Shown here piece after piece: positions 33,134 through 61,913 of a DNA stretch of 64,000 nucleotides. Under the pieces are notes generated by a model. That model worked only from the letters and a program-made list of their open reading frames with translations, was not told the origin of the DNA and did no database searches. How positions within the stretch are numbered: position 1 is the first letter of the stretch; each line of letters starts with the position of its first letter. The DNA comes from an uncultured Fibrobacterota bacterium. Its GTDB lineage: Bacteria > Fibrobacterota > Chitinivibrionia > Chitinivibrionales > FEN-1185. A program made the position numbers and the translations under genes. Where the stretch lies: assembly GCA_963753345.1 (NCBI GenBank), contig CAVWBU010000027.1, positions 224,001 through 288,000 on the forward strand, read 5' to 3'.

Positions 33134-35249
33134 TCAGAACTTGCATTTCAAGACGACATACTGAGAAAGGCCGGGCAGCGGCCTTTGAAAATCGTAATCC
33201 TTAACGTTAAGGTAATTTTCGATCCTGTAGGAAAGGTCGAAATGCTCCCCTATCGTACAACCGATGCTCGCATTCAATTGAGGCCTGGGTTGCTGTATGG
33301 GCGGCAGGTTGTCAAAGTTGGTAAAATAGCTGGAGACGAGTCGGGCCGAATGACCTGCATACCAATTCCTGTACATGAATTTGATGTTGAGATTATCCGT
33401 GAATCGCGGCTGCAGCGGTTCGTCCTTCCCATTCCATGATGAAAACGTGTCGGAATGCATAATATTTTCCATGTAGGTCATCGAATTGACGACCGACAAC
33501 CATGGAAACGGGCTCAGGGTGGCGTCGTTTTCCAGCCCCCACGCATTGACATCGGACACATTCGTCGGCGTAAACATGGTTGAATGCCCTATGTAAACTA
33601 TTTTGTCTTTTGTTGTGCTCGCGAATACAGCTCCGGATACGGCGATCCATGATTTAACAAAAGAGAACCCCAGGTCGCCTTCCAGCCGGGTCTCGGGACG
33701 GAGGGCCGGATTACTTGTTATATGCGCTCCTTCTGAATACTTTTCGGAAAATCCCGGACTTCGACTACTGTATTGAATACTCGCCAAAATGCCAAGACAA
33801 TCAAACGGCTGGTAACGTAATTCGGAAAAACCACCGGGAAACCCTTTCTTTGTTAACCCGCCCCCCGACACCGGGCCAACCAAAGTCATGCTGTCGTTTG
33901 TTGAATCAATCTCGTATCGGTAAAGACCGCAAAGTCGTGCCGTTACCTCCTTGCAAAAATAGACCTTAGCCTCCATCCCCACCTTCCCGGTAAGGCGGAA
34001 ATAATGCGGTTGTACTTGCCCCGCTGGCGACAGGAGATTGTCGTCGTCAAACCCGTCATAGCTCGCGTCAAGGATTCCCTTAAGGAGCAGATGATTTCCG
34101 ATGCCGTCTTGAAGTATGCCTTCCAATGATCCGTACGGTTGATTGAAATTGTGCAAGTCGGGCGTCGTGAGATAATATTTTTGGAACCTCCGGAATCCCT
34201 CATCCCGGGTTTGCCCTGCTGCCGTTACGGTCATGGAAATGTTTTGAGCAAGCGCCGCAGAATATGATTCCAGCAATGAAACTCTGCTTTCCCTCACCGT
34301 TCCGTCGTTGAGACCCGCCGTTGGGAAGTAATAGATGCCTTCATCCGTAATGAGCATCGAAAATTGCGAAGTAAGTTTGCTGCGGTTGTCAATCTTGAAC
34401 GTGTTTTCGTACATTGAAGACAATGTCGAAAAGAAGTTGTTATCCATGGTTTTCTGAGAATCATCGGTTGCCACGCTCGGCCCAAGCGTCACAACGCGGT
34501 CGGTATACGGATAATTATTGTCCGCCCACCCGTAATTTATGGAAAAGCGATGGGTCATCCGACCCGAAGTTTTGCTGACTATTGCATTGCCTTCGCGATA
34601 CCCGAATGAACCGACTTCCAGGGAGGCGGCCGTTGCATCGCCGGCGCCGTCCGAGGTGAGATTAATGACCCCTGCGGCATTGGCTCCGAAAATCTCAATG
34701 GGTGGGGTGGTTTTGTAAATGGTGATGCTTTGCAAGGCGGAAATCGGAATCTTTGAGATATCAACCGCATTCCCGGTTGAACCATTTAAGGGTATTCCGT
34801 CAAGATAGACCTGCACCTGACTCGGCGAGCTGCCCCGGATCGACACGTCTGAATAATGGCCGAAACCGCCTCTGTCGCAGATGAACACGCCGGAAACGGT
34901 TTCGAGCACCGATTGCAAGTCTACGTATTTGCCCGAAAAGTCCTTTGCATCCACGATCACTGTTGAAGGGGTATACTCCCTGATACTCTTGCCGGTAACA
35001 ACCATTTTGTCAATGACGACGCCGGAATCGGAAGTCCGTGCCGGTCTCGGGATACTGTGGCTTGGAATTGGAGGGCTTAGCATCTTTCGGCGGGGAATTT
35101 ATCGTGTTGGCGTCGGGATTTGAAATCGAACCCGGAGATTGTGCAGGCTGGGCAACACCAGTGCTATCCGTTCCCATGGTCAGCGAATCGGATTTCGCTT
35201 CCGCAAATACACAAGAGCACAAGCAAATCAACACGAATAGGATGCGCAC
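33134..35249 (-). CDS. btuB: TonB-dependent receptor (BtuB-like); one frameshift near 35040
   Basis: Signal peptide from GTG 35249 in one frame; TonB box MVVTG, plug SIRGS..VQVYLDGIP, NPALRPE and terminal Phe in ORF 33134-35083. Confidence 0.85.
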
Positions 35250-35308
35250 AGATCGGAATTCCTTGACCCCATCCCTCGGGGATCGTCGGTACAAACGCGA
35301 AAATGAAT

Positions 35309-35475
35309 GTTCAGGTAGGTCTCCTGGCTTCCCCAAAGATCATGCCGGCCTTCCCATTCCGCTTTCGGAACAGTGGCTGAGGCTACATTGCCCTTTGCTT
35401 TTCGCAACGGGCCGGGGTCACAGTGGCGGGTCCGCTCCCGATTTTAACGGGATTCCCTTGGCACCTGGACATGAG
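35309..35475 (-). promoter_or_regulatory. Cobalamin (B12) riboswitch
   Basis: Minus strand AGGTG..AAGGGAA.CCCG..AAATCGGG..CGG.CCCGCCACTGT..CCACTG..GGGAAGG..AGCCAGGAGACC directly upstream of the btuB-like gene. Confidence 0.95.
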
Positions 35476-35867
35476 AAAGAACTGCAATAGAATTTAATAA
35501 AGATTCGGTGAAGAGGCAAGGAAAAACAGCTGGAAATACCCGGTCAACGAGTCTTCCCCGTCATCAAAAGCCAATTATCTTGATTTCACCATCCAAATGA
35601 TGTTCAAAATCGGTTTCCCATCGGGTGGGATTGTTGCGGATATACCGCCGAATTTGGAACAACGATTTGTCGTCGCGGATGATGTGATCGTAATAATTGC
35701 GTTGCCATATTTTTTCAACCCCGCGTTGTCGGGCGACGTTGATTTGTTTCGTGGATTGGTATTTGAAATATGCAACGATGTTTCCCAACGTCGTGGTTTT
35801 CGTGGTTGGTTTTCCCGTGGTGGTTGCATTCGTGTCCGTTGCATTCGTATCCCCGATTGTTGCATTT

Positions 35868-36106
35868 GTAGGGGCGTGGTCATCACGCCCCATTTTATGG
35901 GCGCGGGTGTCGCGCCCCATATTTTGGTCGCCGCGCCCCGGGAATTCCGTCCGGGGAAATTCCATTGGGCGGGATAACCCCGCCGTTTCGGATTCAATCG
36001 CGCCGGATGATGGCATGATGGGGCGGGATAACCCAATGGGGCGCGATGACCGCGCATACGTGGGCCCGTCGGTTTTCAGAATGGGGCGCGATGACCGCGC
36101 CCCTAC
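35868..36106. repeat. GTAG-tagged REP doublet (REPIN-like) with internal partial copies, inside the RAYT ORF
   Basis: GTAGGGGCGTGGTCATCACGCCCCAT at 35868 and inverted ATGGGGCGCGATGACCGCGCCCCTAC at 36081-36106, with about five degenerate copies between. Confidence 0.85.
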
Positions 36107-36365
36107 GAATGTCGAATCCCGGATGACGATAATGCCGTGAATATGATTCGGCATGATGATGAATTCGTCCAACCGGATATGCGGATAATGCGCCGGCAAA
36201 TCGTTCCAACATTGACGAACAATAATCCCATAATCGTTTTCGACCATTGCGCCGCCAACAACGTCCCCGAATAATTTTTGTTTGCGATCCTGAATGCAAA
36301 CCGTGACAAAATACGCGCCGGGAAGGGAATAATCGTAGCCGGGCAGACGGATGGATTTGCGATTG

Positions 36366-36389
36366 CCTGCCCTGAGCGAGGTCGAAGGG
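36366..36389. repeat. 24-bp palindromic mini-element inserted in-frame in RAYT
   Basis: CCTGCCCTGAGCGAGGTCGAAGGG; its removal restores YHNRKSIRL. Confidence 0.8.
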
Positions 36390-36600
36390 TGATAACCGGT
36401 GTATTTGTTGAAGATGCCAGTGGACATTGTTCCGCCTTAAGCACTAGGATCAGGAAAAAGATAGTACTACGGATTGCCGAGCCCGTGCGGCGTGGGCGTG
36501 CCCGTGCAAGGCCGAACCTTCCGTTGCGCGCACGGTAGAAGCACCCGATTAATAAATTCTTGACGGAACATACCGACGATTGAGCCCACCTGCTGGCATC

Positions 36601-36988
36601 CCCCGTTCGTCTCGATACAGCCCGTGCTCCGCCCAGGCCACTCGACGAACGGTGTACCGTCCCGCCGGTCATCGAGTAGACGCTTTAGGGTCGTATCGAG
36701 ATGCCGGCCACCCCCGTTCGTCTCGATACAGCCCGTGCTCCGCCCGGGCCACTCGACGAACGGTGTACCGTCCCGCCGGTCATCGAGTAGACGCTTTAGG
36801 GTCGTATCGAGATGCCGGCCACCCCCGTTCGTCTCGATACAGCCCGTGCTCCGCCCAGGCCACTCGACGAACGGTGCACCGTCCCGCCGGTCATCGAGTA
36901 GACGCTTTAGGGTCGTATCGAGATGCCGGCCACCCCCGTTCGTCTCGATACAGCCCGTGCTCCGCCCGGGCCACTCGACGAACGGTTA
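36601..36988. repeat. Tandem array, 3.5 x 111 bp, of alternating-orientation hairpins (A-B-A-B-A-B-A)
   Basis: Near-identical units start at 36601, 36712, 36823 and 36934. Confidence 0.97.
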
Positions 36989-37276
36989 CCGCCCCGAGAA
37001 ATCCTTCTTCGCCAGCGAATGCAGCTCATTGTTCCGTTTTTCGATCAGCGCTTTCTTTTTCGCGTGGCTCCAGCCCTGTACCTGCTTCTCACGATAAAAT
37101 GCTTCATCGATTCTCGAATATTCTTCGTTGTACACCAACTTTACAGGGTGCTTCTTTCTCGTGTAATTGGCGCCAAGAAAATTATTGTGTTCCCAAATTC
37201 GTCTTTCGAGATTCTTCGTGCTGCCGGTGTAAAATGTGCCATCGGCACATTGAAGAATGTACATCCACCCTTTCAT
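36986..37276 (-). CDS. Small stand-alone GIY-YIG nuclease (YhbQ/UPF0213-like)
   Basis: WMYILQCADGTFYTGSTKNLERRIWEH..GANYT..EAFYREKQVQGWSHAKK; AAGGA RBS. Confidence 0.93.
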   Translation of the reverse strand: MKGWMYILQCADGTFYTGSTKNLERRIWEHNNFLGANYTRKKHPVKLVYNEEYSRIDEAFYREKQVQGWSHAKKKALIEKRNNELHSLAKKDFSGR

Positions 37277-37331
37277 ACCATTATCCTTCAAGCTGGATTA
37301 TTCAGGAATTACAGTTGCCGCCCGACGAGTG

Positions 37332-37443
37332 CCGCTCGCCTCGATACATTCCTCCGGAACACTCGGCGAGCGGTATTCGACGAACGAGCTACTTCCCCGC
37401 CGGTCATCGAGTAGACGCTTTAGCGTCGTATCGAGATGCCGGC
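37332..37443. repeat. A'+B hairpin pair upstream of the GIY-YIG gene
   Basis: CCGCTCGCCTCGATAC..ACTCGGCGAGCGG and GCCGGTCATCGAGTAG..GTATCGAGATGCCGGC. Confidence 0.9.
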
Positions 37444-38633
37444 ACCCGGCCCAAATCCAATTCGCCTGCAAACGCGCGCTGACTGAGGGAAGAATAGAGG
37501 TTTTCGAGGGAGGTGAGGCTTTGGGTGTAGAGGGATTTGAGGGATTCGAGTTTGAGGACGAGGGAGGAGAAATTTTTCTGGAGCGAGAGAGGGGGAATCG
37601 GAACAAATATTTTTTCCATTGCGTCTGTATCGAATTTCTTTGTTCCATGACCAGCCGTTGTGATTGCCGCAAGAATCTGACGATCCATATTGTCTACACA
37701 GTTCTTTAGATAATGTACTGTGACTTCCTTGACAGGAAGTATGGCCTTCATGTCCTGATTGATGGAAACGTCAACGGTGTTTATTGCAGTTGGAAAGGTA
37801 TGCGCCAAGATCATTCCGCGAACTACAATAAGCAAATGACCTGAACCTATCTTTTTGAGATTTGTTTCGTCAAATACTTTTTCAGAGAGGTAGTCTTGCG
37901 CCTTTGAAATATATGGTACCTTCATATCCTTTGGGCTAATCCAGGGAAACTTTCCAATCCAGAAATCATTTCGTTCTTTACTTGGTGTACCACCGCTGAT
38001 GAATGTGCCAACCTCATGCATTGGAAGTGTCTTCCACCCCTTCTCATTCCTCACCGGGTCCCCAAACATCTCCAGAAACGCGCTCTTCGCCAATTCATCC
38101 AGCGCCTTGATGCTCTCTTTGCGTTTGGCAATCAGCTTTTCCGCGCGGGTGAGAAGGGCGGCGATGCGGATTTGGTCGGCGAGCGATTCAGGAAGGGCAA
38201 TTCTTATTTGGGCCACATCCGAGGGATACAAATGGATGCCTTTTACCTTTGACTTTAGCCATTTCAGGCCTTGCGGTGATTTGATGAACTGGTTAACAAA
38301 ATCCTTATCCGCCTTTATTGGTCTAATTATCAACCATTCTCCTGTGGCAATCACACCGTCTATGGCTTCAGGTACTAGCGCGGTCTTGCTGCCAACGTAA
38401 GCAGAATTATGGGCAGCATTCAATACAATCGTATCACCTGTGCGCAATCTTTTGTTTTCAAATCTCCTATAGAAGTCTGCATCAACGAACGATTCAAACA
38501 AGCCCTTGAAATTACCATTCTCGTCAATGTCACGTATTTTTAAAATTGGAAGCCCCGAAGACCTTTGCTCGTTTTTTGAGGGCGTTTTGCCATTGAAAAC
38601 ATTTGCAACAGTGCTTAGGAGTTCCTTCTTCAT
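37404..38633 (-). CDS. hsdS: Type I R-M specificity subunit
   Basis: Two TRDs (GKTPSK, GGTPSK); conserved QIRIAALL..FLEMFGDP and PPLSLQ..AFAGEL. Confidence 0.95.
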   Translation of the reverse strand: MKKELLSTVANVFNGKTPSKNEQRSSGLPILKIRDIDENGNFKGLFESFVDADFYRRFENKRLRTGDTIVLNAAHNSAYVGSKTALVPEAIDGVIATGEWLIIRPIKADKDFVNQFIKSPQGLKWLKSKVKGIHLYPSDVAQIRIALPESLADQIRIAALLTRAEKLIAKRKESIKALDELAKSAFLEMFGDPVRNEKGWKTLPMHEVGTFISGGTPSKERNDFWIGKFPWISPKDMKVPYISKAQDYLSEKVFDETNLKKIGSGHLLIVVRGMILAHTFPTAINTVDVSINQDMKAILPVKEVTVHYLKNCVDNMDRQILAAITTAGHGTKKFDTDAMEKIFVPIPPLSLQKNFSSLVLKLESLKSLYTQSLTSLENLYSSLSQRAFAGELDLGRVPASRYDAKASTR

Positions 38634-40195
38634 CCCACCATCCCCTCCATCTCCCCCAGCTCCCCCGCAATCTCCTTCTCCATCTTCCTCAATTTTTCCA
38701 GAATCTTCCCCGGCTTCTCATACTCAACCTCTTCAAACACATCCTCTTTATATTTACTCATGCTCAAGTCATAGTTTTCCTTAACGACCTCGGCCTTGGG
38801 CACAAAGAAGAATTTCTCCTTCCTGTCGCTCTTCTTTTTCTGGTCCCGTTTCTTAAATTGCGTCACAATGTCCTGCAAATCTCCGTAGCCTTCCAGCTTT
38901 GTCCGTTTGTCGTCCAGGCTGTACCCGTCGCTTTGCATATCGTAGAACCAGATGTTCTCGGTTTCTCCGCCTTTGGTAAAGACCAGGATTGCGGTGCTTA
39001 CTCCTGCGTAGGGCTTGAACACGCCGCTGGGCATGGTAACGACCGCCTTGAGTTCGCATTTTTCAACGAGGATCTTTCGCGCTTCCACAAAGGCGTTGCC
39101 GCTGCCGAACAACACGCCCTGCGGGACAATAACGCCGGCCGTGCCGCCCATCTTGAGCAGGTTGTAAATGTTCTCCACAAAGAGCAGTTCCGTTTTGGTG
39201 GTCCCCAGCTTGAGCGACTCGTTGATGTCGCCTTTGTCTATGCTGCCCGTAAACGGCGGGTTGGCCATTACAATCTGGTACTTGTTCTGCTCGATAAACG
39301 TTTTGCTCAGGGTGTCTTTGTAGTCCACGTGCGGCGTGTCCACGCCGTGCATCATGAGGTTCATGAGGCCCAGGCGCACCATGGTCACGTCGAAATCGTA
39401 GCCGTTGAGGCCCGCGTTGAGGATGTCGCTCACCTTTTTGTTAAGGCGGCTGCTCACCGAGCTGCGGACAAACCCGTCTTCGTCGGGCCTGGGCTTCTTC
39501 TTGTCTTTGTCGAGCTGCGTCACAATGTACTGGTACGCGCCGAGCAAGAACCCGCCGGTGCCGCACGCCGGGTCGCAAATATGGTTCCCAAGCTGCGGGT
39601 CTACAAGCTCGGTAATAAGCTTGATGATATGACGCGGGGTCCTGAATTGCCCGTTCTTGCCAGCCGTGGCTATTTCGGAGAGCAGCATTTCGTACACGTC
39701 GCCCTGAATGTCCTGGAACGCGTGCCCGCCGGTCTTGGAATCTTTTTCGATCTCCGCGAATATCTCCTCAATGGTGGACATGGCCTCGACAAGCAGACTG
39801 GGCTTGGGAATGATAAAGACCGCGTTCGACATGTGATGGCTGAACGGCGATTCGTTGCCGTTGAGCGTTTTGAGGAACGGGAACACTTTGGTTTGCACAT
39901 GCGAAAGCATTTCTTCCGCCTGCATCCGCTTGAACCGGCTCCATCGAAGCGTCTTCTTGTCCACCTTCTGCTTTGTTCCGGGTATTGTAAACGTGCCGCT
40001 GAACCTGGAGACGTACTTCTCGCCGGTGAATTCGGCGTCCGATGTCCGCTTCAGGTCGAGGTCGTCGAGCCGCTTCATAAAGAGCAGATAGGTTATCTGC
40101 TCGATTGCGGTGAGCGGGTTGGCAATGCCGCCGCTCCAGAACTTGTCCCAGAGCTTGTCGATTTTGCTTTTGAGCGCGGAGTTGTTTTGAAGCAC
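38630..40195 (-). CDS. hsdM: Type I R-M DNA methyltransferase subunit
   Basis: GQFRTPRHII; DPACGTGGFL; NPPF; GTG start overlapping the upstream stop. Confidence 0.97.
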   Translation of the reverse strand: MLQNNSALKSKIDKLWDKFWSGGIANPLTAIEQITYLLFMKRLDDLDLKRTSDAEFTGEKYVSRFSGTFTIPGTKQKVDKKTLRWSRFKRMQAEEMLSHVQTKVFPFLKTLNGNESPFSHHMSNAVFIIPKPSLLVEAMSTIEEIFAEIEKDSKTGGHAFQDIQGDVYEMLLSEIATAGKNGQFRTPRHIIKLITELVDPQLGNHICDPACGTGGFLLGAYQYIVTQLDKDKKKPRPDEDGFVRSSVSSRLNKKVSDILNAGLNGYDFDVTMVRLGLMNLMMHGVDTPHVDYKDTLSKTFIEQNKYQIVMANPPFTGSIDKGDINESLKLGTTKTELLFVENIYNLLKMGGTAGVIVPQGVLFGSGNAFVEARKILVEKCELKAVVTMPSGVFKPYAGVSTAILVFTKGGETENIWFYDMQSDGYSLDDKRTKLEGYGDLQDIVTQFKKRDQKKKSDRKEKFFFVPKAEVVKENYDLSMSKYKEDVFEEVEYEKPGKILEKLRKMEKEIAGELGEMEGMVG

Positions 40196-61788: not shown

Positions 61789-61913
61789 TCTCGATACAGC
61801 CGTCGCTCCCCTCGATGCATCCCTCCGGGACACTCGGGGAGCGATGTTCGATGAACGGATTACTGTCCTGCCGGTCATTGAGTAGACGCGTAGCGTCGTA
61901 TCGAAATGCCGGC
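61789..61913. repeat. Distal nested A/A''+B hairpin cluster of the GIY-YIG-associated family
   Basis: TCTCGATACAGC[TCGCTCCCCTCGATGC..ACTCGGGGAGCGA]TGTTCGATGAACGG, then GCCGGTCATTGAGTAG..GTATCGAAATGCCGGC. Confidence 0.9.

Follow-up and report, generated by a model that had tools for sequence, protein, structure and literature searches.

Are the hairpin repeats that bracket a small nuclease gene the sites that its product recognizes, or do gene and repeats merely share a locus? The question is raised by a 64,000-nt stretch of DNA (hereinafter, the window) from the 4.5-Mb assembly of an uncultured Fibrobacterota bacterium (labeled G000; other genomes have G-numbers and gene loci have L-numbers), in which an open reading frame (ORF) for a 96-aa GIY-YIG protein lies between a tandem array of hairpins and a further hairpin pair. 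The original prediction held that the enzyme recognizes or nicks these hairpins and spreads them. Comparison of the locus with its relatives leads to a modified picture, in which the flanking hairpins are probably the cognate recognition sites of a small, single-domain GIY-YIG nuclease whose clade is sister or peripheral to the Ssn nucleases. The system is a distinct new branch, with another hairpin build and four matched classes of protein tail and hairpin, of a kind that has been known since 2025.

The gene and the hairpins in the window

The locus consists of the following features, with positions in the window:

36986..37276, minus strand: single-domain GIY-YIG nuclease gene (Pfam PF01541), Ssn-like, tail class 'LAKKxF'
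36600..36996, no strand: tandem array of A (forward) and B (reverse) hairpins (Tandem Repeats Finder)
36603..36652, plus strand: hairpin A1; 8-bp stem, CTCGATAC, inner hairpin, ACTCG, stem
36714-36763, 36825-36874, 36936-36985, plus strand: other A copies, same motif as A1
36665..36708, minus strand: hairpin B1; the A motif on the opposite strand, stem with one bulged T
36776-36819, 36887-36930, minus strand: other B copies, same motif as B1
37332..37373, plus strand: hairpin A', upstream of the gene; stem CCGCTCGC/GCGAGCGG, fold z-score -3.5
37400..37443, minus strand: hairpin B', likewise upstream, marking the outer edge of the module; fold z-score -3.4
61803..61913, no strand: A''+B'' doublet without a gene, 24 kb away, between two convergent genes

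The protein, counted as 96 aa from the ATG, matches the GIY-YIG family over residues 2-74 (E = 1.7e-17, 63.9 bits) and has no second domain in Pfam; Y6, Y16, G18, R26, H30 and E63 are invariant in its alignment with Ssn homologs and UPF0213 proteins. The array has a period of 111 bp and 3.6 copies with 97% matches (score 759), each unit comprising one A and one B hairpin. Its last hairpin ends at 36985, immediately adjoining the stop codon of the minus-strand ORF (36986-36988), and the final 11 bases of the array overlap the 3' end of the gene. The layout described at first, with the array abutting the stop codon and an extra A'+B' pair upstream, is confirmed, and both sequence and folds agree with the description of A and B as one motif in opposite orientations, to which the bulged T of the B stems is to be added as a new feature. 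The three stem pairs that had been quoted are correct to the letter; one of them, TCGCTCCC/GGGAGCGA, sits at 61803-61844, outside the segment 36601-37443 to which it had been attributed.

When treated as single-stranded DNA (ssDNA), the six window hairpins adopt the described folds (z-scores between -1.3 and -3.5; for A1, -10.3 kcal/mol and z -2.4), and the inner hairpin of A is variable in sequence. The pattern CTCGATAC-N(5-35)-ACTCG has 10 matches in the window, compared with 0.02 expected and a maximum of 1 among 100 shuffles. The tenth match is part of the A''+B'' pair, which is 84% identical to the A'+B' doublet; together with its stems, the motif is found in the whole assembly only at the gene locus and at 61803-61913. 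Neither a GTAG nor a CGTC tag is present in hairpins A and B. An Rfam scan of window positions 34000-40000 (E up to 10) yields no family matching the hairpins, and a scan of seven related loci (E up to 1) yields weak matches only, under the gathering scores.

Hairpins beside relatives of the gene

A protein search with one genome per species retrieved 489 relatives, and the flanks were analyzed for the best 80 of the 489 (66-89% identity; L022-L101). These 80 come from Fibrobacterota, Spirochaetota, Nitrospirota, Ignavibacteriota, Bacteroidota, Chloroflexota, Planctomycetota, Desulfobacterota, Pseudomonadota and candidate phyla, the nearest relatives of the window protein being from Nitrospirota, Spirochaetota and Desulfobacteraceae. 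The related hairpins have a common core, TCGA...CTC, inside a stem of variable sequence. In the 100-bp bins next to the 80 homologous genes, hairpin density reaches 6.4 per kb downstream and 3.9 per kb upstream; in all bins more than 500 bp away, it is 0.15 per kb or less. A hairpin of any of four types is located within 500 bp of the gene in 78 of the 81 loci of the first set, with three loci lacking one. A different query produced another 80 loci, of which 9 were dropped as already present in the first set, and among the remaining 71 new loci, 68 have a hairpin of some type within the same distance and three do not. The commonest layout is forward-reverse, gene, forward-reverse, and the last upstream hairpin is a reverse one in 33 of 42 loci. 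The UPF0213-type paralogs with 45% identity or less, including the second GIY-YIG gene of G000, are free of hairpins except for one hairpin at L006. Hairpins flank nearly all close homologs and, L006 aside, not the UPF0213-type genes, and the pairing of hairpin and gene is general across many phyla.

Two features of individual loci can be mentioned here. L031 carries a degenerate second copy of the nuclease gene downstream of the first one, after a reverse hairpin. In many of the loci L022-L101, the reading frame continues through the downstream hairpins, resulting in open frames of 120-200 aa with hairpin-encoded ends.

The hairpin as a covarying structure

For the stem test, every distinct core match near the genes was taken, regardless of whether a stem was present, and the outermost core letters were left unconstrained by the detector. 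Among the short cores, 170 of 209 distinct ones have at least five of seven flanking pairs. Their first and last letters are T..A in 192 cases, C..G in 15, T..G in 2 and C..A in none; the respective numbers for the long cores are 40, 22, 1 and 2. In an alignment of 44 long hairpins, six of these from the window, the closing pair is UA in 25, CG in 19 and broken in none, and the three inner-stem pairs, which were unselected, show 14, 10 and 8 double changes. The three stem positions nearest the loop accommodate several pair types, and the outer stem tends to GGT...ACC. The claim that the stems covary around a fixed loop core thus holds in alignments of related hairpins.

The architecture of the hairpin is a variable outer stem, a T-A or C-G closing pair, an invariant TC bulge and a GA/TC mini-helix, inside which there is either a small loop or, in the long form that is present in the window, a fixed internal loop followed by a variable inner hairpin. 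Judging from the compensatory changes, the hairpin is a structure rather than a mere repeat.

Protein tails matched to hairpin types

The C-terminal tails of the proteins fall into four types that pair with the four types of hairpins, each locus being assigned its dominant hairpin type. The rules for both were set on the first 81 loci and then fixed for the 71 new ones; the pairing is observed in 74 of the 76 classified loci of the first set and in 45 of 54 out of sample:

LAKKxF (the type of the window), long hairpin: first set 17/19 (two without a hairpin), new loci 3/3
ECxN, 14-nt loop: first set 36/36, new loci 3/4
KNYTQ, 13-nt loop: first set 13/13, new loci 8/9
AYRD, TCGAG..CCTC: first set 8/8, new loci 31/38

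In the TCGAG..CCTC type, G..C replaces the C..G of the other short loops. The seven AYRD exceptions among the new loci (three, one and three) have hairpins of other types or none, and 17 tails in the new set were not classified by the expressions used, though they look like variants. The match between tail and hairpin fits direct recognition of the hairpin by the protein.

Relationship to the Ssn nucleases

The original prediction stated that no biochemical characterization of such a system was known. This statement is outdated because Chenal et al. (Nat Commun 2025; PMC11893778) showed that Ssn are site-specific ssDNA nucleases that cut by their flanking hairpins. As described in the parts of that paper used here, SsnA is a 94-aa single-domain GIY-YIG protein (CDD cd10448, GIY-YIG_unchar_3), and ssnA is bracketed by NTS/SRM hairpins in many bacteria; the purified protein binds the hairpin and cuts ssDNA beside it, with no action on double-stranded DNA or RNA, SsnA homologs differ in specificity, the Neisseria SsnA modulates transformation, and the NTS-ssnA-NTS arrangement is likened to insertion sequences (IS200) and to RAYT and repetitive extragenic palindromic (REP) elements. 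In other literature, nothing relevant was found that joins GIY-YIG with repetitive extragenic palindromic, YhbQ or RAYT; GIY-YIG together with palindromic intergenic repeats led to organelle genomes only, among the matches listed, the core strings of the hairpins to chance matches only, and GIY-YIG paired with SsnA to the paper of Chenal et al. and an SLX4 review only.

Identity between the window protein and a Neisseria SsnA homolog is 38%. In each of five Neisseria genomes, its best match is the SsnA homolog, over residues 5-83, with E-values of 1.0e-12, 1.1e-12, 2.3e-10, 5.8e-7 and 2.0e-6, and the next GIY-YIG-like matches in the same genomes have E of about 1e-4 or weaker. The representative genome of N. 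lactamica, searched with PF01541, contains no SsnA-type gene but only a YhbQ-type gene and uvrC, so that other Neisseria genomes were used for the comparison. The window protein and the Ssn homologs share the catalytic Tyr, Tyr, Arg, His and Glu.

In a phylogenetic tree of 65 rows and 96 columns, Ssn is represented by nine rows, namely the NTS-flanked gene of L192 with seven relatives (four of these eight have SRM matches) and L013. The hairpin clade (support 98/96) is the sister of the Ssn rows (100/99), the two being joined with support of 92/67, or 97/86 when one more row is included, and both are set apart from the UPF0213 grade (97/86). Supplementary Data 4 of PMC11893778 covers three species that carry the clade (Cloacibacterium rupense, Thermoflavifilum thermophilum and Halomarinibacterium sedimenti). 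All three are scored there as having no SsnA homolog by tblastn and no CDD score over 100 but a cd10448 match by psiblast, with the protein behind each match not named in the table, and the SRM fold enrichment given for them is 0.4 to 1.3.

Possible mobility of the gene and the hairpins

The congener G002 has a cassette that encodes a protein with 89% identity, and the homology to the window runs only from the first to the last hairpin. This cassette has an IS5-like transposase on one side and a methyltransferase on the other, and that of the window has hsdS and RAYT; the protein tree does not follow taxonomy. Doublets without a gene occur at one other place in G000 and at several in G002, and a Fibrobacteria genome contains dispersed pattern matches, often as inverted pairs. 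Three genomes, one of them a 0.7-Mb Dojkabacteria genome, have their hairpins almost only at the gene (8/14, 5/6 and 3/11 pattern matches).

Direct repeats of host DNA of at least 14 bp just outside the outermost hairpins were detected by a systematic test in 4 of 126 usable loci (L060, 28 bp; L048, 26 bp; L101, 20 bp; L071, 14 bp) and in 0 of 116 controls, three more matches being hairpin sequence; a broader search adds L043 (24 bp) and L062 (46 bp). Such repeats are too rare to be a general signature of the cassette, and none were found at that of the window. At L048, the cassette (2281-2979) sits exactly at the junction of the hsdM stop and the hsdS start, inside a direct repeat of 26-29 bp that leaves both host reading frames whole. 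As for an empty site, no relative was found in which RAYT adjoins hsdS and the cassette is missing, and four DNA sequencing runs from one study gave only short contigs that cover small shares of the stretch, none of them spanning or joining across the cassette; RNA runs are absent from the list of runs that contain the stretch. Together, the limits of homology and the changing neighbors suggest that gene and hairpins move between genomes as a cassette.

The proposed mechanism and the evidence that weighs against it

Recognition of the hairpins by the nuclease appears well supported by these comparisons. By analogy with Ssn, the protein would bind the shape of the hairpin on one DNA strand and cut nearby, with the C-terminal tail probably helping to set the type of hairpin that is read. 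Forward and reverse copies would provide one readable hairpin on each strand, the gene and the hairpins would travel together between genomes, and the gene-less forward-reverse doublets would be REPIN-like derivatives of the cassette. Binding and ssDNA cleavage are attributed to the enzyme on the model of Ssn. That the enzyme also spreads the hairpins, as the original prediction had it, is an inference that the comparisons do not establish, given the hairpin-rich relatives in which no clade gene was found and the rarity of flanking direct repeats.

Several observations weigh against this interpretation. To begin with, 10 of the 14 related genomes with at least six short hairpins have no clade gene that could be found (85 matches in G007, 62 in G028, 32 in G025, 30 in G030 and 24 in G021 among them); the remaining four have the gene, in one case with a stop codon. 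All 14 are draft metagenome assemblies, a kind from which genes flanked by repeats readily go missing. The expectation that hairpin abundance follows the presence of the gene is, accordingly, not borne out as a simple dependence. G000 itself contains about 17 dispersed short hairpins with 13-nt loops, with no gene of the matching tail class found, whereas the cognate long doublet has a single gene-less copy there. The match between tail and hairpin could be plain linkage because gene and hairpins are co-inherited and the tree needs few switches of type. The enzymatic activity of the clade is presumed from its likeness to Ssn, and the fit to Ssn is partial. Chenal et al., in the part of their paper that defines an SsnA homolog, compare with the N. 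meningitidis SsnA and require E <1e-10 and 75% cover; the similarity of the window protein straddles that E-value, with two of the five Neisseria genomes passing (by comparison with their SsnA homologs, not specifically with that of N. meningitidis). The SRM pattern, as given in that paper (HGTCWY...RNCYNB), has no matches in the window and the 80 loci, compared with 4 of 8 Ssn control loci. Given the sister position, 38% identity and shared catalytic residues, and yet no SRM matches, the clade is best viewed as either the sister of Ssn or a peripheral branch at its edge, with hairpins that the consulted parts of PMC11893778 do not describe.

The 13-nt-loop hairpins of G000 have stems ttcatgg/ccacgaa or ttcaccc/gggcgaa and often come as inverted pairs about 60 bp apart (for example, C19:15863-15922, C37:37033-37119 and C49:19048-19134).

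Alternative interpretations

The boldest extension of the cognate-site interpretation can be entertained only tentatively: the gene with its hairpins might be an autonomous mobile element, of a kind undescribed in bacteria, in which the GIY-YIG nuclease acts on folded single-stranded ends, the gene-less doublets are non-autonomous derivatives, type I restriction-modification (R-M) operons are the preferred targets, and the four specificities have co-evolved.

Another relationship, in which the nuclease recognizes the hairpins without spreading them, the doublets are independent repeats moved by other means and the gene is a selfish homing-type gene lodged inside, seems unlikely. The hairpin-rich genomes in which the clade gene was not found and the orphan 13-nt-loop hairpins of G000 speak for it, and the forward-reverse, gene, forward-reverse layout looks as though the gene sat between two doublets. 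However, three genomes have their hairpins almost exclusively at the gene, the type of hairpin goes with the protein tail, and no other candidate mover was found, G021 being also without a RAYT match.

The gene and its hairpins could also be a domesticated host function, namely, restriction of incoming DNA in single-stranded form, as proposed for the Neisseria SsnA, tied to type I R-M operons. The location of the loci is relevant here. The window gene comes after hsdM-hsdS, and the hsdS frame (37404-38633, minus strand) ends inside hairpin B', with its last 13 or so codons being hairpin sequence. Among the 80 loci L022-L101, 14 have hsdM no farther than 2.5 kb from the nuclease gene, 7 have a RhuM-like gene there, and 17 have at least one of hsdM, hsdS and the RhuM-like gene. 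The effect of the Neisseria SsnA on transformation (PMC11893778, in the part used here) points the same way. Nevertheless, a host function is quite improbable given that the protein tree does not follow taxonomy and that the cassette of the congener G002 is elsewhere. The proximity to R-M genes may reflect a target preference, a shared role in dealing with foreign DNA or the tendency of mobile DNA in general to collect at loci of this sort. R-M loci and defense islands generally gather mobile DNA.

A function of the hairpins as RNA, whether as terminators, stabilizers of the nuclease mRNA or a type III-like repeat-array antitoxin, is very unlikely. The array does start at the stop codon, with hairpins upstream of the start as well, and many REPs have been argued to act as RNA (Di Nocera et al. 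2013, PMC3733652, in the part used here). However, both orientations of the motif are on one transcript, so that one of the two would show the complementary loop in RNA, there is no run of T after the stems, gene-less copies occur between unrelated genes, no Rfam family matches, and Ssn, as reported in the relevant part of PMC11893778, does not interact with RNA.

The neighboring RAYT and other features

The original prediction contrasted the hairpins with those of the adjacent RAYT, for which the window shows:

35564-36427, minus strand: RAYT-like ORF (NCBIfam REP_Tyr_transpos)

This ORF matches REP_Tyr_transpos with E = 3.8e-16 and 59.3 bits, under the cut-off of 80, and contains an in-frame low-complexity insertion of about 120 residues compared with the paralog at G000 C35:162342-162761. 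It is 170 bp from the array, and in between, at 36471-36560, there is a separate repeat of about 90 bp that includes GTAG. At least 35 copies of this repeat occur in the congener G002, and G004 has a few; it is probably the REP of the RAYT itself. The hairpins of the array, as had been claimed, lack GTAG and are unlike this repeat. No TCGA...CTC hairpins were found at two other RAYT-like loci in G000. Of 41 related genomes, 36 contain RAYT matches, in numbers that do not follow the hairpin counts (17 RAYT matches and no hairpins in G036, none and 24 in G021). Cross-phylum association, covariation and the tail match bear out the assignment of the hairpins to the GIY-YIG gene and not to RAYT. 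That the hairpins are REPs of the RAYT at 35564-36427, with the GIY-YIG gene merely lying among them, is highly improbable, close as the array is to a gene with a recognizable match to REP_Tyr_transpos, because the RAYT side has its own abundant GTAG repeat, its counterparts in G000 lack the hairpins and the two counts are unlinked.

At 35297-35483 on the minus strand, a cobalamin riboswitch (Rfam RF00174, 80.6 bits, E = 2.8e-19) is located upstream of a gene for a TonB-dependent receptor (33134-35083).

Significance

Ssn are the first nucleases known to cut ssDNA exclusively and at specific sites, and their value as tools hinges on more enzyme-site pairs. The clade described here offers four candidate pairs, with a fixed loop and free stems, as opposed to the fixed tag and palindrome of NTS, and the link between tail and hairpin gives direct access to the question of how a protein of 96 residues might read the shape of DNA. 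The spread across phyla and the frequent position in R-M operons bear on whether nuclease-hairpin pairs are selfish mobile DNA, host defense or both.

Comparison with known systems

The closest relatives are the Ssn nucleases. In both cases, a single-domain GIY-YIG protein of about 95 aa is encoded between hairpins that occur on either side and point both ways, some genomes contain scattered copies without the gene, and the hairpins differ by clade. The differences are in the build of the hairpin, with NTS conserving a 5' CGTCAT tag and a fixed palindrome, according to the part of PMC11893778 used here, whereas the window clade fixes the loop and internal loop (TCGA...CTC) and varies the stems, and in the kind of evidence, ssDNA cutting having been assayed for SsnA whereas the window clade is known from sequence alone.

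The UPF0213/YhbQ proteins resemble the window protein in size and fold family, and its best sequence matches among solved structures are PDB 1ZG2 (E = 6e-13) and 1YWL (E = 3.4e-11). They differ in that the UPF0213-type paralogs form their own grade and, the single hairpin at L006 aside, have no hairpins; the tree (97/86) and the better SsnA matches in Neisseria (1e-12) speak against membership in this family. The protein does not fit a GIY-YIG homing endonuclease of the I-TevI or Seg type, having no second domain; at 60% identity or more, there are no relatives in either the plasmid or the phage collection. NCBIfam TIGR01453 scores 20 bits on the window protein, compared with a cut-off of 56.

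The CGTC-tagged REP superfamily, as characterized in the part of Di Nocera et al. 2013 (PMC3733652) used here, is palindromic and often arranged in oppositely oriented pairs, with no transposase known at the time. These REPs carry an unpaired CGTC tag, whereas the window hairpins carry neither CGTC nor GTAG.

The general plan resembles that of RAYT/REP (REPIN, BIME), in which a genome likewise has a single gene bracketed by inverted doublets of its own hairpin, together with tandem arrays whose units alternate in orientation and dispersed doublets without a gene. Membership in RAYT/REP is ruled out by the nature of the associated gene, the lack of GTAG in the hairpins and the unrelated RAYT counts. 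Compared with RAYT/REP, the window system has a GIY-YIG nuclease in place of the HUH tyrosine (Y1) transposase and no GTAG tag, its hairpins are mostly low-copy, and its protein tree suggests frequent transfer across phyla.

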